In this document: positions 9,800-50,762 of the stretch, one piece after another
Layout of the letters: each line of letters opens with the position of its first letter
Numbering within the stretch: the first letter of the stretch is position 1
Source: Stegostoma tigrinum
Lineage: Eukaryota
Direction of reading: 5' to 3'
Length of the DNA: 64,000 bases
Assembly (NCBI RefSeq): GCF_030684315.1
Contig: NC_081367.1
Coordinates: 31,850,792-31,914,791, forward strand
Notes under the pieces: generated by a model
What the model was told of the DNA's origin: nothing
What the model saw: only the letters and a program-made list of their open reading frames with translations
The model's database searches: none
Position numbers and translations under genes: made by a program

Positions 9800-11788
9800 T
9801 GGCCATTCCTCCCTCTTCACTGGGTCAAAATTCTGATAATCCCCAATCACCATCACGATGTGAACAAAATAGGCTGCAACAGTTCAAGAAGGCAGTCCAC
9901 TGTTGCTTTCTGCAGGGCCATTTCAGGTAGGCAATAAATGTTAACCTTGTCAATGAAGTCCATATCTCACCAGCGAAACAAAATGATGGAACAACATTTG
10001 TAAATTGTCCCAAAATTGAACTGAAAGTTTAAAATGCAGCTTTGAATCATCAACATTATAGCTTAAAATTTCTTGGAATTACATTTGGAAAACTTAAGAA
10101 AATTGATATTTTTAATCAAATACAATCACAATCAATATATAAGATGTTGATTTGTCTGTAACAGCAACTTTTAAAAGGCATTTTCTACTATAGTTGTTCA
10201 AATTTATAATGGTTCTTGTGCATGATACACAATCACCTATGCCGCCCTACTCTGAATGTGAATTTATCATTCTGGGGAACATAAATCCTTCAGACTTGGC
10301 ATCGATATCCATTAATTGAACTATAGGAACACTTATTTATCTCGAATATCATGCACATGAGTTTTTTTACAACACTGAAAGCTTGCATACATTTAAACTG
10401 ACGCTCTCCTTTGCTGTCTATTGTTATAAATATTGGTTTTCTTCATTAGCAGTTTTTTTTTAATCCCACCTTCATCTGACATGCAACCTAATTCGCATCC
10501 TGATCCTTATCTCATGTGTCTGTCACTTTAGCTTTGGGATGTTACCAGGTAACAGACCAGTTTGGCCAGTTCTCGAGTCCTTTGTCTTTCTCATGGATTC
10601 AGATCAATTTAAAGACTTTACTCAATGCACTGAAGCTCATGCTGCCAACAAGCAGACTGTAAGATAGACACAACATGTCAGAAAGGTAAGACCTATAAAA
10701 TAGTCTGTTTAACAGACAACTTGCAGCCAGACCACATTGGGTTAGACAAAAATATCTTTTACATAAAGCTGTCAAAAGTAAAAATTAACATTGTGCTTAA
10801 TTTGTTAGTTGAAATAATTGTAAGTTGTAAGTTTGTGGAAATACCAACTTGTATACAGCTTGTAAGATATGTATATAATAGTATTATGTTACACAAATGT
10901 GATCCTGTTTCTCATTAAAGAAGTATGTCTACTTCATGGCTCAATTACATCTGCTCATGTATCCGGTTACTAAGGCTGCCTTAAGAGCAAAATTGGGGAT
11001 TAGTTGTAACCTTATCTTAAAAAAAAACTTCTAACCTACAGTGCACAAACCACTGCCTTGGGGGTATCAGGAATATCATTTTAGATTATGTGCATAGACC
11101 AAACCTACAATTTTCCCATTACTGCGTTAATTTTGTTCTCAATGATGCACAGTTGTATGATGGCCATTTTTTGAAATCATCTTGTTTCAGGCTAAGCCAG
11201 TGACTAGCGAGTGGAATCAGTGGTGATGGAATGAGATTTGTGGACGGAGTGTTCAATCAAAGACAATCAGTCTTTTCAATTGGAGGAATTTGAGTCTCCC
11301 CAGGAAGAGAGAGCAGAGACAATGGAGGGGTTAATATAGGTTAAAAAGAAAAGCAGTAGAGCAGGATGGAGAGAGATCAAGGTGGACAAGAAAAAAAAGT
11401 GTAGTGTATCATCATGACTAGACTAAAATATGGTATTACTTATGACTCTACTTAGGGCTTATTTCAGTGCTGTGGAAACCTGTTTTCAGCGTGACATTTG
11501 GAGACCAACATGTTGATGAAGTTTTGCGGAAAAAAAAGGAGGTTGAAAATGGGGTGGTACTTCGCAACCAGACAGAGAGGCATCGAGCATGGTTTTAATT
11601 CAGGAGGGAAACAATGGCAGAAATTTGAAAATAATAGTGCCAGTTGAAAATGAAATGTGTACAATGTTGGTTACCAAGCATACTATGATGGGATAATGGG
11701 AACTGCAGATGCTGGAGAATCCAAGATAATAAAATGTGAGGCTGGATGAACACAGCAGGCCAAGCAGCATCTCAGGAGCACAAAAGCT

Positions 11789-11816
11789 GACGTTTCGGGC
11801 CTAGACCCTTCATCAG
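11789..11816 (-). ncRNA. Minimal hammerhead ribozyme motif (intact core), left arm of the palindrome
   Basis: Reverse complement reads CTGATGAAGGGTCTAGGCCCGAAACGTC. Confidence 0.78.
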
Positions 11817-12549
11817 AGAGGGGGATGGGGTGAGGGTTCTGGAATAAATAGGGAGAGAGGGGGAGGCGGACCGAAGATGGAGAGAAAAGAAGATAGGTGG
11901 AGAGAGTATAGGTGGGAGGTAGGGAGGGGATAGGTCAGTCCAGGGAAGACGGACAGGTCAAGGGGGTGGGATGAGGTTAGTAGGTAGATGGGGGTGTGGC
12001 TTGGGGTGGGAGGAAGGGATGGGTGAGAGGAAGAACAGGTTAGGGAGGCAGAGACAGGTTGGACTGGTTTTGGGATGCAGTGGGTGGAGGGGAAGAATTG
12101 GGCTGGTTGTGTGGTGCAGTGGGGGGAGGGGACGAACTGGGCTGGTTTAGGGATGCGGTGGGGGAAGGGGAGATTTTGAAACTGTTTCAAAATCTCCCCT
12201 TCCCCCACCGCATCCCTAAACCAGCCCAGTTCGTCCCCTCCCCCAACTGCACCACACAACCAGCCCAATTCTTCCCCTCCACCCACTGCATCCCAAAACC
12301 AGTCCAACCTGTCTCTGCCTCCCTAACCTGTTCTTCCTCTCACCCATCCCTTCCTCCCACCCCAAGCCACACCCCCATCTACCTACTAACCTCATCCCAC
12401 CCCCTTGACCTGTCTGTCTTCCCTGGACTCACCTATCCCCTCCCTACCTCCCACCTATACTCTCTCCACCTATCTTCTTTTCTCTCCATCTTCGGTCCGC
12501 CTCCCCCTCTCTCCCTATTTATTCCAGAACCCTCACCCCATCCCCCTCT

Positions 12550-12577
12550 CTGATGAAGGGTCTAGGCCCGAAACATC
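12550..12577 (+). ncRNA. Minimal hammerhead ribozyme motif, right arm of the palindrome (GAAACATC variant)
   Basis: CTGATGAAGGGTCTAGGCCCGAAACATC; a CpG-type transition breaks the ACGT palindrome. Confidence 0.65.
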
Positions 12578-13592
12578 AGCTTTTGTGCTCCTGAGATGCT
12601 GCTTGGCCTGCTGTGTTCATCCAGCCTCACATTTTATTATACTATGATGGGAGTTGACAGGGAATTAAAATGAGTGAGCATAGAATGCGTCTTCTGGACA
12701 ACATAAGCTGAGAACAGATGAGGGAAGAGAAATTTAAAAAAGAGCTTGGGCAGGGAAAATCCACAGGAAAGGTTTAGCCTAGCGAACAAGGGAAATGGGT
12801 GGGATACAGCAGGACTAGTTGAATGATAATGAAATCCATGAGCTCTTCACATAGACCAGAGATGGGAATGGAGAGGCTGGGAAAGAGAAGTTGAAGAAGA
12901 TGCATGATAATTGAGCAAAGCAGACACAATACTTCTTTTGCATTCCAGGAGGACTCAGAAATACAGAGCAATTTTAACAGAGATCATTCGTGCTTGAATT
13001 ACAAAACAGCATCACTTCAATTGGGTCTTATGGTGCAGAGTTGCACAGTCCTGAACAGAGGTGACCAATGAAATCCAGGAAGTTAGATTTAGTACAGTTC
13101 ATGCTAAATTGTCAACCTTTTGTTGTGTGGGTTTACAAAATATGGCATTTCACAATTCAAAGACCCTTTGGATACTTTTGTCAAGATTATAGTGCCATGA
13201 CTTCTCTTAACATTGATCGGAATGGGTGAGACAGCTTAATGTTTCATCATTCAAAATCCATCCATTTACACAGGGTTAAAATCACACCTATTATAGCCTG
13301 ATTATCTTTAGAATACAGTTCTTCGCAAGGTGAATTAAATAATTCTGAATTTTGTCAGGTACGTAAGTAGAATCAAATACGTTGAAAGTAATTATCAACT
13401 ATAAGCCTTTAACAAACTGTTATTGTATTTCAAGTTCTTCAGGTGTCAATATAAGCTCTGGCAGCTTACCTAAAACGCAATCTTCACCGTGGTTAATCGT
13501 GACCGAACCATGCATTTCACTGCCAGTCACCTGCCGAAGCAAAGAAAGTTCAAAACAAAACCATGATTCAGGAATATTGTCTCCTGTGAGTA

Positions 13593-13793
13593 TCAGAAAT
13601 AATGGGAACTGCAGATGCTGGAGAACCCAAGATAACAAAGTGTGAAGCTGGATGAACACAGCAGGCCAAGCAGCATCTCAGGAGCACAAAAGCTAATGTT
13701 TCTGATGAAGGGTCTAGGCCCGAAATGTCAGCTTTTGTGCTCCTGAGATGCTGCTTGGCCTGCTGTGTTCATCCAGCCTCACATTTTGTTATC
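13593..13793. mobile_element. Miniature palindromic Penelope-like insertion with a hammerhead core in the loop
   Basis: About 74-bp inverted arms (13629-13702 / 13722-13795); TTGTCTCCTGTGAGTA repeated at 13577-13592 and 13794-13809. Confidence 0.92.
13702..13729 (+). ncRNA. Hammerhead ribozyme motif (GAAATGTC variant)
   Basis: CTGATGAAGGGTCTAGGCCCGAAATGTC. Confidence 0.62.
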
Positions 13794-13954
13794 TTGTCTC
13801 CTGTGAGTAGTTGCCTTCTCATGTAGATATACTGTTCCTTCTTCCTGTTTATTTGATCAACAACGGAAAGGCCAAGAGTAAAAAGTAAGATTTGTTGAGT
13901 GGTTTTGCAGTGAGAATTAGGAGAAAAAATACATCAACCCATGTGGTCCACAAG

Positions 13955-14280
13955 GAGGAGTGGTGACTCAGTGGTTAGCACTGCTGCCTCACAGTACCAG
14001 GGACCTGACTTCGATTCCACCCTCAGGTGGTTGTCTATGTGGAATTTGCACATTCTGCACGCTTCCTCATGGGTTTCCTCTAGGTGCTCTAGTTTCATCC
14101 CACAGTTCAAAGATGTGCAGGCTAGGTGGATTGGCCATGCTAAATTGCCCATAATGTTCAGGGATGTGTAGATTAGGTGGGTTATGTGAGATTGGGCTGG
14201 GGGGGATACTCTGAGGGTCAGTGCAGACTTGTTGGGCCAAATGGCCTTCCCCTACACTGTAGGCATTATATGATCTATGA
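13955..14280 (+). mobile_element. HE1-like tRNA-derived SINE
   Basis: A box GTGACTCAGTGGTTAGC, B box CTTCGATTCC, core TTTGCACATTCT...GATTGGCCATGCTAAATTGCCC, CR1-like tail. Confidence 0.88.
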
Positions 14281-22079: not shown

Positions 22080-24520
22080 TTTATTTATTCAAGTAATGTG
22101 GGCATTCTAAGTGACCTTGAGGAGGCAATGGTAAGCTGCCAAAAGATTGAAGCCCTTGACAAGATACGATGAAACAATCACACTGTTGTTAGGAAGGAAT
22201 TTGCAGGAGTTTGGCCAAGCAACAAATAAGGAACAGTGTTAAAGTTCCAACTCAGGGTAGTATGTTTCCTGGAAGGGAACTTGTAAATGGTGTGCTCCCC
22301 TGTATTTGCTTCCCTTTACCTTCACGGAGGTAGAAGATGTGAATTTGGAAGTTGTTGTTGAAGGAATCTTGGTGCGTTGTTGCAATGCACCTTGTAAATG
22401 GTACACATTGCTACCAGTAAGCATCGCTGGTGGAGTGAGTGAATGTTGAAGGTGATGGATGGGGTGTTTTTTTCCTAGATGGTGTCAAACTTCCTGAGTG
22501 CTGTTGGAGCTGCATTCAGGCAAGTGTTGCACCTTCCATCTTGATTTGTGCCTTGTAGACGGTGAACTCGCTTTGAAGAATCTGGAGATGAATTAGATTA
22601 GATTCCCTAAAGAGTGGAAATAGGCCCTTTGGCCCAACAAGTCCACACTACCCCTTGGAGCATCCCACCCAGACCATCCCCCTATAACCCACAAACCCCT
22701 GAACACTACGGGCAATTTAGCATGGCCGACCCACCTAGCCTGCACACCTTAGAAATGTGGGAGGAAACTGGAGCACCTGAAGGAAACCCACGCAGACTCG
22801 GGGAGAATGTGCAACTTCACACAGACAGTTACCCAAGGCTGGAATCGAACCCGGGTCCCTGGTGCTGTGAGGCTGCAGTGCTAACCACTGAGCCACCGTG
22901 CCGCCCTAAAATTATCTGCCACAGAGTTCCCAGACCCTGATCTGTCCTTGTATCCACAATATTTACATGCTGGCCCAGCTTGGTTTCTGGTCAATGGTAG
23001 CTACCAGCATGTGAATAGTTGGAGAATCAAGTAACAATGATTGGAACCTCTCCTGCTAGAGATGTCTTTGTCTAGCATCTGTGTAGTATAATGTTACTTG
23101 CTACTTATCAGCCCAAGCCTAAATGTTGCCCAGGTCTTGCTGCATTGAACATTGTCTGTTTCAGTGTGGGAAGTCTGGAATAATGCTGAACATTGTGCAA
23201 TCATCATTGAACATCCCCACTTCTGACCTTATGATGGAGGGAAGGTCAATGAATCAGCTGAAGACAGTTGGGCTTAGGACACTACCTTGAGGAACTACTG
23301 ACGTGTAGTACTTAGATCGAGATGTTTGATGCAATTACAATAACCACTTTCCTTTTGCTAGGTATAATTCCAAACAGTGGAGGTTTTCCTTCTTCATTCT
23401 CATTGATTTCAATTTTCCCAGGGCCCCTTCTCACCCAGTCAATACTGCATTGATGTTAAGGACAGTCAACCTTCCTGCCCCTCTCGAGTCAATTCTTTTT
23501 TGTCCATATTTGAAACAAGACTGTATTGCCGTCACAAGCAGAGCAAACATAGAGAAATCCAAATAGAGCTTCAATGCGTAGATTGTTGTTAAGTAAGTGC
23601 TGCTTCATAGCACTGTCAATGACATCTTATGTTACTTTGCTAGTGACTGAGGTTAGGGTGATGGGGTGGTAATTGGTTGGTTTGCTTTTGGCATACTTTT
23701 GAGGACAGGACATACTTGGGCTTTTTCCCTCATTGCTACATAGATCCTAGTGTTGTAACCACATCAGAACAGGTTGGCTTAGGTATGCCAATCCTGGACC
23801 ATTATTCTTCTGCACTATTGCTGTAATGGTGATAGGGCCCACAGCCTTTTCAGTATCCAGTGTCTTCAGCCATTCTTGGTATCAAGTGGAGTGTATCAAA
23901 TTGGTTGAGGAATGGCATCTGTGATGATGGAGAACCCCAGAGGAGTTTGAGATGGATCATCCACACAGCAAATCTGGCGAAGTTACCTGAAAATGTTTTT
24001 ACCTCATCAATTGCAACGAAATGCTATGCAACCCTTTCACTGAGGATGAAATATTTGTGAAGTCTCCTCTACCAGTGAATTATTTTAATTGACTTCATTG
24101 GCAGTTTGTTAGGACTGCAAAGCTTCAATCTGAAATGTTAGGTGTGGAATTGCTTAGCTCTGTCAATGACTTGCTGCTTATGATTCTTGGAATGCAATTA
24201 ATCCTGCATTGTAGCTTCATCAGGTTGATATCTAAGTTTTAGATTGATGCTTAATGCTGCTGCTGGCATGACCTCCTGCCTTTGTGACTAGGTTAGAGTT
24301 GATTCTCTAGTTTAGTGCTATTGCTAGAGTCAGATTAAAGATTGCCATTGAGTAAAATTCTGCTGTTGATGGCACAGCATCTAATCTGGAGTTGTGACAT
24401 TGGTTCAAAATTTTTCCCATTCAGCATATCAGTAATGCCACACAAATTGATGGAGAGATCCTCAATACGAAGGTGGGACTTCATCTCCACAACATTCTGA
24501 CCAACACTTCCAATGACAAA
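22080..24520 (-). mobile_element. Long decayed non-LTR retrotransposon remnant (clade not resolved)
   Basis: Pieces of related sequence recur on the + strand at about 2250-2430, 4100-4790, 5885-6330, 9340-9970 and 51480-52250; no intact ORF. Confidence 0.5.
22591..22906 (-). mobile_element. HE1-like SINE (well preserved)
   Basis: Reverse complement GGCGGCACGGTGGCTCAGTGGTTAGC...GGGTTCGATTCC; (TCTAA)n tail; AATTA on both sides. Confidence 0.92.
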
Positions 24521-25159
24521 TTTCACTGTGAAAAACCTATGGAAATTTAACATTTGTGAAACCTGATTTTGTGTTACCCTCTCAGCTGAAGTTTATATCT
24601 TGATTCTGAATTTCATTTGGATCTTTAAGACATTCCAGCTGTATTTTCTGGTTATTAATTTTATCACTAAAGTACAGTTGTGATTATAATATTGCATATG
24701 AAAGTCAGACCAAACTTTCCGGCATTTTCCGTTAAAGACTTGGACTTTATTTTGGAAACAGGCTACCTACTGAAATTATAAAATCTGCTTTCGGAAATAA
24801 GGTTGTATTTGATAATAAAACTTGCAGGTGAAACTAGCAACACATTAAAAAAGGAATTGTATTATAAGGTCACATTGAATATTGCTTCAAACAATGGACA
24901 GCAAAAAGAAGAGCTATGCTTGTAATGAGAATGATGAGGGTAGGATTTCAGCGAGAGCCCCATTTATAGCTCATCATGAATTACAATGCACAGGGCCTGG
25001 AGCCAGTAAGAACCCACTTATGATGATGATGTGAGACAGGCAATTCTAATTCTCAGGCCTCATTTACGATGCTGTCAGAAAGACTTTTCTGAAACCCAAA
25101 TGGAATCATTGTACATTATCATGGTGCAACTTCCATAAATCCAAGGGAACAGCACTGCT

Positions 25160-25488
25160 ACTTGGGGCAGCACAGTGGCCCAGTGGTTAACACTGCTGTC
25201 TCATAGCACCAAGGACAAAGGTTCAATTCCACCCTTGGGCGACTGTCTGTGTGGAGTGTGTACATTCCCCCCAAGTCTGCGTGGGTTTCGTCTGGGTGCT
25301 CCAGTTTCCTCCACGGTCCAAAGAAGTGCAGGCCAGGTAGATTGGCCATGCTAAATTCCCCACAGTGTTTAGGGATGCATAGATTAGGTGGGTTATAGGC
25401 GGATGGGTCTGGGTGAGATGATAGAGAGTCAGTGTGGACTTATTGGGCCAAAGGGCCTGTTTTCACACTATAGAGAATTCTATGATCT
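25160..25488 (+). mobile_element. HE1-like SINE
   Basis: GTGGCCCAGTGGTTAAC / GGTTCAATTCC boxes and the conserved core. Confidence 0.88.
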
Positions 25489-26934: not shown

Positions 26935-27192
26935 TTTGACAATGTTCCAATGCAACGAGAACTAGCCAGTTGGACACAAAATTGGCTCGAAGGTAGGAGA
27001 CAGAGGGTGGTAGTGAAGGGATGCTTTTCAGACCAGAAGCCTGTGACCAGTGGAGTGCCGCTGAGATCAATGCTGGGGCCATTGCTTTTTGTCATCTATA
27101 TAAATGATTTGGATGTGAATACAGGAGGTGTGGTTAGTAAATTTGCAGATGACACTAAAATTGATGGTGTCCTGGACAGTGAAGAAGGTTAC

Positions 27193-29474
27193 ATAGAACA
27201 TAGAACATTACAGCACAGTACAGGCCCTTCGGCCCGCGATGTTGTGCCGACCTGTCATACCAATCTGAAGCCCATCTAACCTACACTATTCCATGTACGT
27301 CCATATGCTTGTCCAATGACGACTTAAATATACTTAAAGTTGGCGAATCTACTATCGTTGCTGGCAAAGCGTTCCATTCCCTGACTACTCCCTGAGTAAA
27401 GAAACTACCTCTGACATCTGTCCGATACCTCTCAGCCCTCAATTTAAAGCTATGCCCCCTCGTGCTCGCCGTCACCATCCTAGGAAAAAGGCTCTCCCTA
27501 TCCACCCTATCTAACCCTCTGATTATTTTATATGTCTCAATTAAGTCACCTCTCAACCTTCTTCTCTCTAACGAAAACAGCCTCAAGCCCCTCAGCCTTT
27601 CCTCGTAAGACCTTCCCTCCATACCAGGCAACATCCTAGTAAATCTCCTCTGCACCCTTTCCAAAGCTTCCACATCCTTCTTATAATGCGGTGACCAGAA
27701 CTGTACGCAGTACTCCAAGTGCAGCCGCACCAGAGTTTTGTACAGCTGCAGCATAACCTCTTGGTTCCGGAACTCGATCCCTCTATTAATAAAAGCTAAA
27801 ACACTGTATGCCTTCTTAACAGCCCTGTCAACCAGGGTGGTAACTTGCAAGGATCTGTGTACATGGACACCGAGATCTCTCTGCTCATCTACACTACCAA
27901 GAATCTTTCCATTAGCCCAGTACTTTGCCTTCCGGTTACTCCTACCAAAGTGTATCACCTCACACTGGTCCGCATTAAACTCCATTTGCCACCTCTCAGC
28001 CCAGCTCTGCCGCTTTTCTATGTCTCTCTGTAACCTACAGCATCCTTCATCACTATCCACAACTCCACCAACCTTAGTGTCGTCTGCAAATTTATTAACC
28101 CATCCTTCTACGCCCTCATCCAGGTCATTTATAAAAATGACAAACAGCAGTGGACCCAACACCGAACCTTGCAGTACACCACTAGTAACTGGTCTCCAGG
28201 ATGAACATTTCCCATCAACTACCACCCTCTGTCTTCTTTCAGCAAGCCAATTTCTGATCCAAACTGCTATATCTCCCACAATCCCATTCCTCCGCATTTT
28301 GTACAATAGTCTACTGTGGGGAACCTTATCGAACGCCTTGCTGAAATCCATATACACCACATCAACCGGTTTACTCTAATCTACCTGTTTGCTCACCTTC
28401 TCAAAGAACTCAATGAGGTTTGTGAGGCACGACCTACCCTTCACAAAACCATGCTGACTATCCCTAATCAAATTATTCTTTTCTAGATGATTATAAATCC
28501 TATCTCTTATGAGCCTTTTCCAGCACTTTACCAACAATTGAGGTAAGACTCACTGGTCTGTAATTACCAGGGTAGTCTCTACTCCCCATCTTGGACAGGG
28601 GAACCACATTTGCTATCCTCCAGTCGTCTGGCCCTATTCCTGTAGACAATGACGAGTTAAAGATCAATGCCAAAGGCTCGGCAATCTCCTCCCTGGCTTC
28701 CCAGAGGATCCTAGGATAAATCCCATCCGTCCCAGGGGACTTAGCTATCTTCACACTCTGTAGGATTTCTAATACCTCTTCCTTGTGAACCTCAATCCCA
28801 CCCAGTCTAGTAGCCTGTATCTCAGTATTCTCCTTGACAACATTGTCGTTTTCTAGAGTGAATACTGTCGAAAAATATTCATTTAGTGCTTCCCCTATCT
28901 CCTCTGACTCCGCACACAGTTTCCCACTACTATCCTTGATTGGCCCTAATCTTACTCTCATCATTCTTTTATTCCTTAAATACCTATAGAAAACCTTAGT
29001 GTTTACCCTGATCCTATCCACCAACAAATTCACGTGTCTCCTCCTGGCTCTTCTGAGCTCTCTCTTTAGGTCTTTACTGGCTACCTTGTAACCCTCCAGT
29101 GCCCTAGCCGAGCCTTCACATCTCATCCTAACATAAGCCTTCTTTTTCCTCTTGACCAGAGGTTTCACTTCTTTCATAAGCCATGGCTCCCGCACTCTAC
29201 AGCTTCCTCCCTGCCTGACAGGTACATACTTATCTAGGACACATAGGAGCTTTTCCTTGAATAAGCTCCACATTTCTAATGTGCCCATCCCCTGCAGTTT
29301 CCTTCCCCATCCTATGCTCCATAAATCTTGTCTAATCTCATCGTAATTGCCTTTTCCCCAGCTATAACTCTTGCCCAGTGGTATACACTTATCACTTTCC
29401 ATCACTAAAGTAAACATAACAGAATTGTGATCACAATCACCAAAATAACAGAATTGTGATCGCTATCACCAAAA
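27193..29474 (-). mobile_element. Young 5'-truncated CR1/HER1-like LINE (reverse transcriptase)
   Basis: ORFs 28500..29417 (KSPGTDGIYPRIL, NYRPVSLTS) and 27281..28360 (YMDFSKAFDKV, QGSVLGPLLF, KFADDTK); one frameshift and one stop lie between them; (TTCTATG)n 3' tail at about 27193-27208. Confidence 0.96.
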
Positions 29475-45899: not shown

Positions 45900-47702
45900 T
45901 CCAATTTAATTTCAAATATGACTTTGTCCAAAGTTTGTGTTTGAAGAAATAACTGTCACAGATTACAAAATCGTTGCAACCGTTCCAAGCTTCTTAATTC
46001 ATCACACAGAAAGAATCTAAAGTCCCTCCAATTCAGTGTCAAATTGTTTCTCAAAAGATTCCGAGTCATTTGACACTACTGTGGAATTATCTAGGTGATC
46101 AAATTTGCACACAGGACCTGAGGTGCAATCTACCCAGAACATTCAATCCAATCATGACTTCTTCTGACTAGTTTTGTTGCCTTAAGGGTGTGCAGTTCAC
46201 ACGATTTACTGGCTAATTTAATTGCATTCTGCATTGATTAAGCATGTGGGTTTATTAAACAGAGGATAGTAATGGATATGTTATTGGAATAGTCATCCAG
46301 AGGTCTCGACTAACAATGTAATGTCATTTCAAATTCATTTAAGATTTTCAAATTGGGTTGAAATAAATGAAAATTCCAACATTACATTCTTTGGCGAACT
46401 ATGGGTGGGAATAATATAGCACCAGCCTTGACAGCAATTCAAAGTGAATTGTGAAGCCCACTTAACCTTATGGATGTCTTTCAACCTGATTCCAAGCATT
46501 TTTAGAAACATTTATTGGCAGGATGTCTTTATTTTTCATGTAATCATACCAGTATTGCATTAATACACAATTAAATCAGCCCATTTTCTGCCCACATAAA
46601 TTGCCCACATTATTGTGAGTTTTGAACTTCCTCCTCTGATTAATTATTATAAAAGCAATAGAAATTGAGTAATGCTACTTTGCTATTGCATTTAAGACCA
46701 ATACATATTGTTATGATCCCAGCTGATGGTGGCACTTGTCAAGCAGATACAAACATATGAACTAGGAGCTGAAGTGTACCATTTGACCCCTTGAACTGGC
46801 TTCGCCATGCAATAAGATAATGGCCGATCTATTTGTGCTCTGAATTCTGTACTCTTGTTTACCCCAATAATCTTCTCTTGCGTAAAAAGGATCAATCCAT
46901 CCCTGACTCAAGAACATTCAGTGACCCTGCTTTCACTGCATTCTGAGGAAGAAAGTTCCAAAGTTGCACAACTCTGAGAGAAACAAAAATTATCTTCATC
47001 TCTGTCCTAAAAGATCAAATCCTAATTTTAAAAATGTCATCTAGTTCTGGGCTCACCTAGAAAAGGACAGATCCTTTCCACATCACCTTGTCAAGACCAT
47101 GCAAAATTTTATATTATTCAACTAAGTGTATCGCTTTGCTACATTCCAATGGAAACATTAGTTTGCCAAACCTATTGTCATTAGAAAACCTGCTCATTCT
47201 GGGTAGTAATCTCTTCTGAACAGTCTCCAACACATTTATCTCCTTCCTTAAATAAGATGACCTAACTGCACACTGTTTTTGAGTTGTGATCTCACTAATA
47301 CCATGTACAAGTAAAGTATAAAATCCTTATTGTTATGTTCAATTTTCATAATAAAGAATAGCATCCCATTAGTCTTTCTGATAACATGTAATGTCTATGA
47401 ACTAACTTTTTGTGACTCATGCTTCAAAACACCTCGGTCATTCTGCATCACAGATTTCTGCAGTTGTCCTCCATTTATGTAATACAATGTTTTTTCATTC
47501 TTTGTACCAAAGTGAATGCTCCATCTGCCAAGGTTTTGACTACTCATTCAACCTATCTATCTACAAACTCTTCTTAACAAACTTTCCTACCTATTTTTGT
47601 GACTTCTGTATTGTGTGTTGATGAATATTGTAAAATTTGAGGTCCCAGCAGAGATTCCTGCAGAACTCCGCTTGCCACATTCTGACAAATCAGACTAATG
47701 CC

Positions 47703-48688
47703 CCCACCCCTGTCTGCTTTCCGGAGAGACCACTCTCTCCGTGACTCCCTTGTTCGCTCCACACTGCCCTCCAACCCCACCACACCCGGCACCTTCCCCT
47801 GCAACCGCAGGAAATGCTACACTTGTCCCCACACCTCCTCCCTCACCCCCATCCCAGGCCCCAAGATGACATTCCACATTAAGCAGAGGTTCACCTGCAC
47901 ATCTGCCAATGTGGTATACTGCATCCACTGTACCCGGTGCGGCTTTCTCTACACTGGGGAAACCAAGCGGAGGCTTGGGGACCGCTTTGCAGAACACCTC
48001 CGCTCAGTTCGCAACAAACAACTGCACCTCCCAGTCGCAAACCATTTCCACTCCCCCTCCCATTCTCTTGATGACATGTCCATCATGGGCCTCCTGCACT
48101 GCCACAATGATGCCACCCGAAGGTTGCAGGAACAGCAACTCATATTCCGCCTGGGAACCCTGCAGCCATATGGTATCAATGTGGACTTCACCAGTTTCAA
48201 AATCTCCCCTTCCCCCACTGCATCCCTCAACCAGCCCAGTTCATCCCCTCCCCCCACTGCACCACACAACCAGCCCAGCTCTTCCCCCCCACCCACTGCA
48301 TCCCAAAACCAGTCCAACCTGTCTCTGCCTCCCTAACCGGTTCTTCCTCTCACCCATCCCTTCCTCCCACCCCAAGCCGCACCCCCAGCTACCTACTAAC
48401 CTCATCCCACCTCCTTGACCTGTCCGTCTTCCCTGGACTGACCTATCCCCTCCCTACCTCCCCACCTACACCCTCTCCACCTATCTTCTTTACTCTCCAT
48501 CTTCGGTCCGCCTCCCCCTCTCTCCCTATTTATTCCAGTTCCCTCCCCCCATCCCCCTCTCTGATGAAGGGTCTAGGCCCGAAACGTCAGCTTTTGTGCT
48601 CCTGAGATGCTGCTTGGCCTGCTGTGTTCATCCAGCCTCACATTTTATTATCTTGGAATCTCCAGCATCTGCAGTTCCCATTATCTCT
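47703..48688 (+). mobile_element. Penelope-like element (Neptune-type), 5'-truncated: GIY-YIG endonuclease plus 3' pLTR
   Basis: ORF 47698..48336 has the Cys-rich linker CNRRKCYTCPH and NVVYCIHC..CGFLYTGETKRRLGDRFAEH; CTAATGCC repeated at 47695-47702 and 48687-48694 (TSD); inserted into an older minus-strand CR1. Confidence 0.93.
48561..48588 (+). ncRNA. Minimal hammerhead ribozyme motif in the Penelope pLTR (intact core)
   Basis: CTGATGA-A-GGGT(CTAG)GCCC-GAAACGTC: both core boxes, stem II, palindromic ACGT stem III and a GUC cleavage triplet; stem I is short. Confidence 0.8.
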
Positions 48689-50762
48689 AATGCCTTTTCT
48701 CTGTTTCCTGTCAGCCAGCCAATCTTCTATCCATGTTAATATATTACCTGCTACACCATGAACTATTATTTTCTTCAATAACTTCTGATGAACTATCTTA
48801 TCAAATGCCTTTTGGAAATCAAATTCCAGTTAGTCTACTTGATTTCCTTTAGCCACAGCATTTGTTACTCATTCAAAAAAGTCTAATAAATTGGTTAAAC
48901 ACAAATTGCCCTTCACAGAACCATTCTTCCTGATTACCTCGGGTTCTTCTAAATTGTCTTTTAAGGTCCTAGATTGAAATTTGCCTTGATAGATTATAAG
49001 TTGAATTTTTCTTCTTTGTTTACTATGGAGATCTGATACTGAATATAAGTCACAAGAATATGGTAATGCACTTTCAATGAAAGAATATAAGTTTGTTACC
49101 AATAAAAACAATGTTACATGATACAAGAACTATTGGAATAATCTCACAACAAATATCAGAGAAGACATAAATATCCTTGTGTGTACTTAAATGTCAATGA
49201 AGAGCCATTCCAATCTCCACATTAAAGACTGTTTTGTTGGCACAGTTGTAATTGGCCTCCTTTCAGCAAATTCTATGTTTTCACTCGACACTATTTTCTT
49301 CAGTTAATGTCTCACCCAAACAGCCTTAAAACTAGCTGCTGACTTTGTTTATTACTGATTATTGTGGGTTCCTTAAACACATCTTCATCAGCTATAAAGG
49401 ATTTTTTTTAAATTTTCTATCTCACACCTCCACAACCTAATGGTTCTGGACCCTTCCTTTCACAGACTCCTAATCAACTCAAGACTTGTTAGCTTTGACT
49501 GATTAGTGGGTGCAACTAACAGCATCTCTACTATTATTGACCTTTTCTATTTCTGTGAAATTAATTCTGTCCCCACAAGCTCTTTCTAGTTATAAAACAC
49601 ATGCAAGCAAATATCTAGCAGTTAACTCTCCAGATGGCTCGCTAATTATTTATCTTAAATTAAACCATTTCTTCATAATGCTTTTTGAACTCACTGTCCA
49701 AAGTGACTTTATGACCTTTCAAACAACTTCATACAATGGGAGGCTAAATCCATCTTTATCCACAATAACAATAATGTATTATGACTCCTCATCACAATAT
49801 GCCAATAAATTCATGGTGAAACCAATTTTCATTAATATTCCATGACAAATGGCTTTTATCACTGCACAATGAAAAGTGTTAAACATCAAGTATGGATCCA
49901 ATTGTTAACCTTTCATTCCTCCATATTTTTAGTAACATAAGTTGACTTTAAGTCATTTTTCCACTAACCGTATAGAATTTGACCTGTATTGGATTATGTC
50001 TAACATGTTTCTTTGTGGAAAAGACAGTGGTTGAATGCAGAGAGGATTCTGAAACTGCCTATGGCATGCAAAGGAAACTGAATTGAAGTTGACCAAAATT
50101 ATGCAACCCAGAACAACTGTAAATATAATGGGCATTTCTAGAGTTAAGAAAGGTAACATTTAACTTTCATCATTGTACAGAAATATCATTCTGGTGGGTT
50201 AGTCAGCATTATACATCCTGCTGACTTTCCTCTCTATTGAAATCCATGTAAAATGGGCAGTTTATACATTACCGATATCTTACAACCAACCAAAATTTAA
50301 TTTCATCATCTTAGACTCCAATACAATTGGACGGAAATCCAATTGAAGGAATTCAAATATAAAGTGAGCTCAGAGACGGACGTTGAAGGAATTTGGCCAG
50401 GACAGAAAGGTTAGTCATGGGATAGGACTGAGGAGCTGAAGGTGCAAGGACAGGAGGGGAAACATGAAAACATCAGTGAAAAAGATGTAATGACAGTTTG
50501 TCTGTAATTTGTTTTTAAAAATTGAACAAAAGTACTGAACTAGTTAATGCAATTATATTTATAATCAAGATGGGAATATAAATGTATTATGTTGATTAAA
50601 ATTTTCATTCTTACTTTTTTTAATTTACTTGGCCTTCACAGTCTCCGTATTAATTTATAGATTTGAGTGTGATTCTATTGACTATATATACTATATGAAG
50701 CTTGAAGTTAGTTATCAACCAGTGTCCTGAAGCAAAAATATAAGTAACACACTGAGTTTACT

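Follow-up and report, generated by a model that had tools for sequence, protein, structure and literature searches.

The hairpin of about 200 bp at 13577..13809 of the window (the whole 64-kb stretch of DNA that was analysed) raises the question of whether such a structure is a small mobile unit that copies itself or a product of a larger retroelement, and of how its two arms came to be joined at a hammerhead motif. The initial annotation had favored template switching at the structured ribozyme and a possible recurrent non-autonomous unit. Our analysis suggests that the hairpin is a recurring outcome and not a member of a discrete family. A breakpoint hotspot is real, but it is not located at the junction of this hairpin.

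Architecture of the Hairpin

Element positions are numbered from the C of CTGATGA (+1, window position 13702), and −1 is the preceding base. Two inverted arms of 75 nt each (13628-13702 and 13722-13796) are complementary at 70 of 75 positions (93%) and enclose a loop of 19 nt (13703-13721). A target-site duplication of 16 bp (13577..13592 and 13794..13809) is exact, and no extension of it is possible. These results confirmed the inverted arms of about 74 bp, the 16-bp duplication and the 19-nt loop that had been noticed before. The hairpin fold has a z-score of −17.9, and an equally stable fold was found in 0 of 200 shuffled sequences.

The left arm (minus strand, element +21 to about +95) ends at the complement of GAAA. 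It is continued by a further 35 nt, the tail of the element (13593..13627, minus strand, about +93 to +128), which this arm alone carries; full-length copies run past the tail into the open reading frame (ORF). The right arm (13722..13793, plus strand, +21 to +92) has no tail. Its final 3 nt double as the initial 3 nt of the duplication, and the insert proper is 13593-13793 (201 bp). At the inversion junction (13701..13702) the arms overlap by 2 nt.

A predicted minimal type I hammerhead motif, consisting of core, stem II, GAAA and GUC, occupies 13702..13729 on the plus strand (motif according to PMC4209133, excerpts). The cut is predicted after 13729, and the motif carries one CpG-type change at 13726. 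The loop had been described as the hammerhead core. This holds for the 5' half of the core, the bulged A and stem II, which form the loop (plus strand) as part of the tail-less arm, but GAAA and the GUC site sit in the right arm. Because of this position, a transcript of the hairpin would, according to the fold, lock both of them in the stem.

DNA contigs from two runs of one sample pass from the left flank into the tail (13300-13618) and from the right arm into the flank (13771-13988) with zero differences; among the contigs listed for these two DNA runs of one sample, none crosses the entire hairpin. No Rfam match was obtained at gathering thresholds in the whole 64-kb window. Immediately to the right of the hairpin lies a tRNA-derived SINE-like repeat (13958-14200) that is very abundant in the contigs compared, and older inverted pairs of other repeats, 72-79% alike, are located at 22602-25478 and 26979-28253.

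Parent Element and Classification

The same terminus was found in ten pieces within the window. A second head-to-head insertion of the same family lies 1 kb away (11680..12652). It is about 950 bp long, its arms are 99% alike and its duplication is 14 bp; it is young and loop-less, with a tail on one arm only. A 5'-truncated parent copy, which was used as the reference, lies at 47697..48690 on the plus strand and carries a Cys linker (C-x4-C-x2-C), a frame with a weak GIY-YIG match, a TATA-like box, the hammerhead and the tail. A DKG motif was seen in the parent. Another copy elsewhere in the genome has a frame of 696 aa with RVT_1 (E 5e-05) followed by GIY-YIG (E 0.0026), both below the Pfam curated cut-offs. 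The proposal that the hairpin is retro-derived is supported, since its parent encodes a reverse transcriptase (RT) and a GIY-YIG domain.

We also inspected loci at which the ORF starts. Partial tandems that form a pseudo-LTR (pLTR) ahead of the ORF were found at 27 of 30 loci, reading from the hammerhead/tail region past +128 into the ORF. The family has two apparent 3' ends, +92 and +128, and both must be internal because these 27 loci read through +128. The combination of an inverted 5'-truncated copy, a tail of 30-40 bp at one end and a duplication was found in this hairpin and in 54 of 54 duplication-bounded hairpins. The linker between RT and endonuclease agrees with the Cx2-5CxxC form of the Neptune clade, which is common to Nematis (definition in PMC8557442, excerpts). 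Judged by its sequence, the hairpin belongs to a Neptune-type Penelope-like retroelement that inserted head to head with the tail on one arm; the linker of the parent fits Neptune or Nematis. Its architecture is of a kind already described for endonuclease-bearing Penelope-like elements, and the family may well be catalogued already.

At L069:2617-4707, no stop codon interrupts the parent ORF as it crosses the C-rich 3' region and the hammerhead; it terminates around +45 and reads the ATG of CTGATGA in frame.

Recurrence and Abundance

The genome comprises 3.2 Gb, its repeats resemble those of sharks, and all genome-wide counts refer to exact-match sequence types only. Hairpins were collected in an unselected sample of 1.464 Mb (seven 200-kb blocks plus the window), with arm pairs at most 6 kb apart. 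From 113 candidate pairs, we kept 69 hairpins that were 300 bp or shorter or had a duplication. Among them, 56 are 280 bp or shorter (41 of these with a duplication), and extrapolation gives 90,000-120,000 mini-hairpin loci in the genome. A duplication, mostly of 14-16 bp, bounds 54 of the 69, and all 54 have one long and one short 3' end. At one locus (L088, G000:C2:80072127-80075229), three copies of one arm with an identical flank follow each other at a spacing of 843 bp; the target site is part of this local tandem duplication.

The 21-mer proposed earlier for tracing the junction has 505 exact matches in the genome, but it overcounts the junction: 30 of these matches were read, and they comprised 8 same-junction hairpins, 10 other hairpins, 7 apparently solo truncations and 5 intact copies of another subfamily. 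With a pattern that covers both arms, the identical junction was found at 127 loci, which is about 0.1% of the estimated mini-hairpins. In nine same-junction copies, this hairpin included, all flanks differ. The expectation that the junction recurs genome-wide was thus borne out.

An identical junction at 127 loci with different flanks could point to a discrete, self-copying but non-autonomous unit that resembles a MITE or a retrozyme. However, 4 of the nine copies have a left-hand tail and the other 5 a right-hand one, and the same-junction copies carry several subfamily haplotypes. Neighboring junctions, taken from one small window of junction space, have 2,009 matches, and this junction accounts for 5 of 100 among the matches listed; it is outnumbered 8-fold by the junction at −4/−4 and 5-fold by that at +29/+29. 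Moreover, the inverted repeats are not terminal and the duplication is variable in length. We found neither the terminal inverted repeats, fixed short duplication and uniform copies from one master of a MITE, nor the head-to-tail tandem units with a complete hammerhead each of a non-LTR retrozyme; the hairpin is a single head-to-head unit with one core. The self-copying unit entertained in the initial annotation is therefore not supported, and we regard it as very improbable.

Breakpoint Positions and the RNA Start

In the analysis of arm ends, 289 of 296 arms were aligned and 161 were kept as young. The end rate of these 161 arms was 0.032 per nt at −7..+1, compared with 0.0014 per nt in the 44 nt upstream (−51..−8), 0.009 at +2..+20 and 0.003 at +33..+60. 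The ends of copies form a wall that lies 2-5 nt on the upstream side of the hammerhead core and peaks at −4, and solo copies end at the same wall from −5 to −2. The lengths of the 54 duplication-bounded hairpins are sharply split: 40 do not exceed 250 bp, 13 are longer than 700 bp and a single one lies in between (251-700 bp). This split supports an uneven distribution of breakpoints, on which the earlier idea of a hotspot depended. Long copies with a short inverted arm that also ends at −4 were seen at L205, L206, L207 and L218; these four loci resemble duplicates of one event.

Counts of 5' ends in the genome refer to copies of the main sequence type in which the base at −12 is not the native one, and shares are hand counts of the first 100 among the matches listed, all from the first contigs. 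About 8,700 ends lie at −4 genome-wide (62 of 100 among the matches listed, total 14,018); 24 of 100 lie at −5 and about 7 of 100 at −6 (among the matches listed, total 14,018). A further 3,186 ends lie at −3 and 6,734 at −2 genome-wide.

The base before −4 was G in 46, T in 12 and A in 4 of the 62 non-native cases among the matches listed (P about 2 × 10−15 versus 0.26 expected). After a context of A and T only, it was G in 76 of 100 among the matches listed. When AAAG rows, some of which are arm-derived (from the other arm), were removed, G still preceded −4 in 42 of 66 among the matches listed. The control position gave a low value, with G before +29 in 16 of 100 among the matches listed.

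We then considered the promoter region. Of 120 intact copies, 98 have a TATTTAT box that begins at −34 or −35; this TATA-like box is conserved, and −4 lies 30 nt after it, the usual spacing between such a box and the start. In an older subfamily there is an initiator-like CCATTTC, whose A is at −4. Because an extra G is the signature of a capped RNA start, and because it occurs 30 nt after the TATA-like box, −4 is likely to be the capped start of the element RNA. In L1 insertions of full length, the cap is marked by an extra G (PMC11702581, excerpts); no passage on it was found in PMC11371274. In D. virilis, the transcript also starts inside the upstream pLTR, but from a TATA-less internal promoter (PMC2377424, excerpts).

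Read-through copies begin between −6 and +8 in 4 of 27 cases and more than 100 nt upstream in 12 of 27, so longer templates are also in use. We rejected −4 as a splice acceptor because the native sequence has no AG there. In the literature, searched mostly outside subscription papers and supplements, we found neither cap or cut-site footprints in Penelope junctions nor such shark hairpins.

The Second Peak at +29 and the Hammerhead

In a survey of 120 copies, the motif shows the boxes of a minimal type I hammerhead, namely the core, a stem II with a G-C closing pair, a palindromic 15.2-16.2 and an NUH triplet; the core boxes were part of the search pattern of this conservation survey. By inspection, helix I can form only 2 bp, short of the 4-5 bp of the type. 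The lowest-energy fold pairs +1..+6 with +25..+30 and is a non-hammerhead hairpin with its 3' foot at +30. A minimal hammerhead would cut after +28.

Perfect palindromes at +29/+29, which correspond to the predicted cut, were found at 709 loci, and those at −4/−4 at 1,035 loci. Control palindromes gave 53 (five bases upstream of the cut), 144 (stem II) and 23 (+55). The clean 5' ends numbered 175 at +27, 475 at +28, 3,201 at +29, 417 at +30 and 499 at +31. Of 100 ends at +29 among the matches listed, 65 were palindrome-type, 10 arm-derived and 25 other; once palindromic and arm-derived rows are removed, +29 retains roughly 800-1,100 ends versus 417-499 at +28, +30 and +31, an excess of about twofold.

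The low share of G before +29 (16 of 100) fits an uncapped end. There are about even odds, on present sequence data, that hammerhead cutting at GUC would be the source of this peak. Another explanation could be a polymerase pause at the competing RNA hairpin predicted by folding, which ends at +30. Blunt joins at +29 are rare (6 loci), so joins use overlaps, and for this reason +29 and +30 are inseparable from the palindrome alone. In the anole element, the ribozyme cut was unneeded in vitro, and the excerpts of PMC11167929 report no RNA-seq reads ending there.

Formation of the Hairpin

The best explanation overall, and in our judgement a probable one given the pattern of junctions, is a Penelope-like head-to-head insertion by twin priming on the same RNA with short-overlap joining. 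Both nicked target strands would prime reverse transcription on one element RNA, and both cDNAs would run toward the 5' end of the RNA and then join via a short overlap. If −4 is the RNA start, a cDNA primed at the initiation-site copy nearest the RNA 5' end would be no more than about 100-130 nt long. Some of the RNA molecules may be cut at the hammerhead GUC, and both arms would be copied from one RNA. A cap-templated C on both ends may create the 2-nt overlap at −4/−4. In this copy, the tail-less arm would extend into the RNA start region (−1), and the tail arm would end at +21 because of a stop or of trimming. The copy itself is likely to have been dead on arrival. In vitro, the Poseidon protein cuts and extends both strands and starts at two tail-bounding sites, and it is a predicted dimer (PMC11167929, excerpts).

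The main competitor is that RT stalls in the structured ribozyme region, where a single cDNA folds back or switches template. A related self-priming model was put forward by Arkhipova et al. (2013), in which palindromes at inverted junctions are read as self-priming (PMC3846280, excerpts). Several results agree with such a route: junctions are dense over the whole ribozyme span (the 2,009 matches in one small window of junction space), the end rate at +2..+20 exceeds that at +33..+60 (0.009 versus 0.003 per nt), the predicted 30-nt hairpin spans +1..+30, and the arms share subfamily markers. However, one cDNA primed at +128 and folding back needs its loop on the tail arm, which must then reach furthest. 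Among the 56 short hairpins, the tail-less arm extends further 5' in 30 and the tail arm in 16, with 10 ties; fold-back of a sense-templated cDNA cannot give the pattern of the 30, and in this hairpin too the tail-less arm reaches furthest. Furthermore, the commonest junctions (−4/−4 and +29/+29) have no loop, and the main wall lies upstream of the structure with a site-specific extra G. A stall with fold-back is thus unlikely. Self-priming on an antisense template (PMC3846280, excerpts) may still apply, but it would leave the extra G unexplained. Template switching at the ribozyme structure, as proposed at the outset, is at most weakly supported, because this junction is a minor one and most breakpoints cluster just upstream of the core, behind an extra G that points to the capped 5' end of the RNA; the part that may stand is a structure-caused pause for the +29/+30 peak.

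The 200-bp hairpins might also be longer head-to-head insertions that shrank after insertion by trimming or loop flipping. Long perfect hairpins are unstable in genomes, the long form is present next door (11680..12652), and loop flipping would blur the argument from the tail side. Against this, trimming by deletion would not halt at a single position that bears an added G, solo copies and the short arms on long insertions share the same wall, and an intermediate length occurs in only 1 of 54 hairpins. Shrinkage is accordingly a rather remote explanation, less probable than a stall.

Twin priming on one RNA is also consistent with the markers of the arms. In 98 hairpins, discordance between the arms of one insertion was 0.087, compared with 0.457 for random pairs, and mixed −4/+29 junctions numbered 98. 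Shared arm markers and few mixed joins agree with a single RNA, or at least a single source, as the template of both primings. Later conversion between arms could explain the shared markers, and loop flipping could weaken the tail-side argument. An origin of the arms from different source elements, considered in view of two marker differences in this copy, was rejected as not general among the 98 hairpins. At several loci (e.g., L039-L043 and L045), the two arms are separated at the junction by a short additional stretch from the end of the other arm, which suggests repeated template jumps at the RNA end.

A joint reading would combine three elements: a capped RNA that begins 4 nt upstream of the hammerhead, in vivo cutting at GUC with the cut product serving as a template, and head-to-head units formed by twin priming on a single RNA instead of self-priming. 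We hold this combination tentatively, at slightly below an even chance.

Meaning of the Junction Census

The single hairpin is ordinary; what is new here is the DNA-based census of junctions in the hairpin population. The origin of Penelope-like inverted units and hammerhead cutting in cells are stated as open in excerpts of PMC3846280, PMC8557442, PMC4209133 and PMC11167929. If the joint reading is true, the junctions would be a base-resolution fossil record of Penelope transposition in the vertebrate germ line. About a hundred thousand natural products in one genome yield exact, testable predictions, namely that the RNA begins at −4, that it is cut after +28 and that both target strands are primed. 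For annotators, such hairpins are prone to being miscalled as MITEs or microRNA precursors.

Comparison with Known Systems

The hairpin resembles a MITE in being short and non-coding and in having inverted repeats. It resembles a non-LTR retrozyme (bioRxiv 10.64898/2026.07.22.740005, excerpts) in bearing a hammerhead and being derived from a pLTR. It differs from both in that its repeats are not terminal, its duplication length varies, head-to-tail tandems are absent and there is no sign of unit copying.

LINE-1 5' inversions by twin priming share with the route proposed for the shark family the priming by both target strands, the short-overlap joining and the flanking duplication. The arms of L1 twin priming cover different parts of the RNA, whereas the shark arms copy the same stretch, hence the hairpin. 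The extra G at a complete 5' end is common to LINE-1 (PMC11702581, excerpts) and the shark family.

The minimal type I hammerheads of metazoan Penelope-like elements (PMC4209133, excerpts) agree with the shark motif in the core boxes, in a bulged base ahead of stem II, in the G-C first pair and in palindromic positions before GUC. In contrast, helix I of the shark motif is limited to 2 bp, a length also seen in the D. virilis variant, and this hairpin retains a single core. In Schistosoma, pairs of hammerhead motifs were reported on opposite strands, 100-700 bp apart (PMC4209133, excerpts).

In the Anolis Poseidon element PAc (PMC11167929, excerpts), two internal initiation sites downstream of the hammerhead bound the tail, as in the shark family. 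The PAc protein extends both target strands in vitro, an activity to which the DNA junctions point in the shark family. Inverted units are not addressed in the excerpts of PMC11167929, which report no RNA-seq ends at the ribozyme cut; in the shark family, by contrast, junctions peak where the cut is predicted, and the Cys linker is of the Neptune type.

The closest likeness in architecture is to the insertion units of endonuclease-bearing Penelope-like elements, which consist of a pLTR, an adjacent inverted 5'-truncated copy, a 30-40 bp tail at one end and a target duplication (PMC3846280 and PMC8557442, excerpts). These units and the shark family share the head-to-head arrangement, the tail on exactly one arm, the duplication around the whole unit, the partial tandems before the ORF, and the TATA-like box and initiator-like site in the pLTR. 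The shark family differs in that both arms are often truncated to about 100 nt, and since this applies to an estimated 90,000-120,000 loci, its junction positions can be counted to the base.
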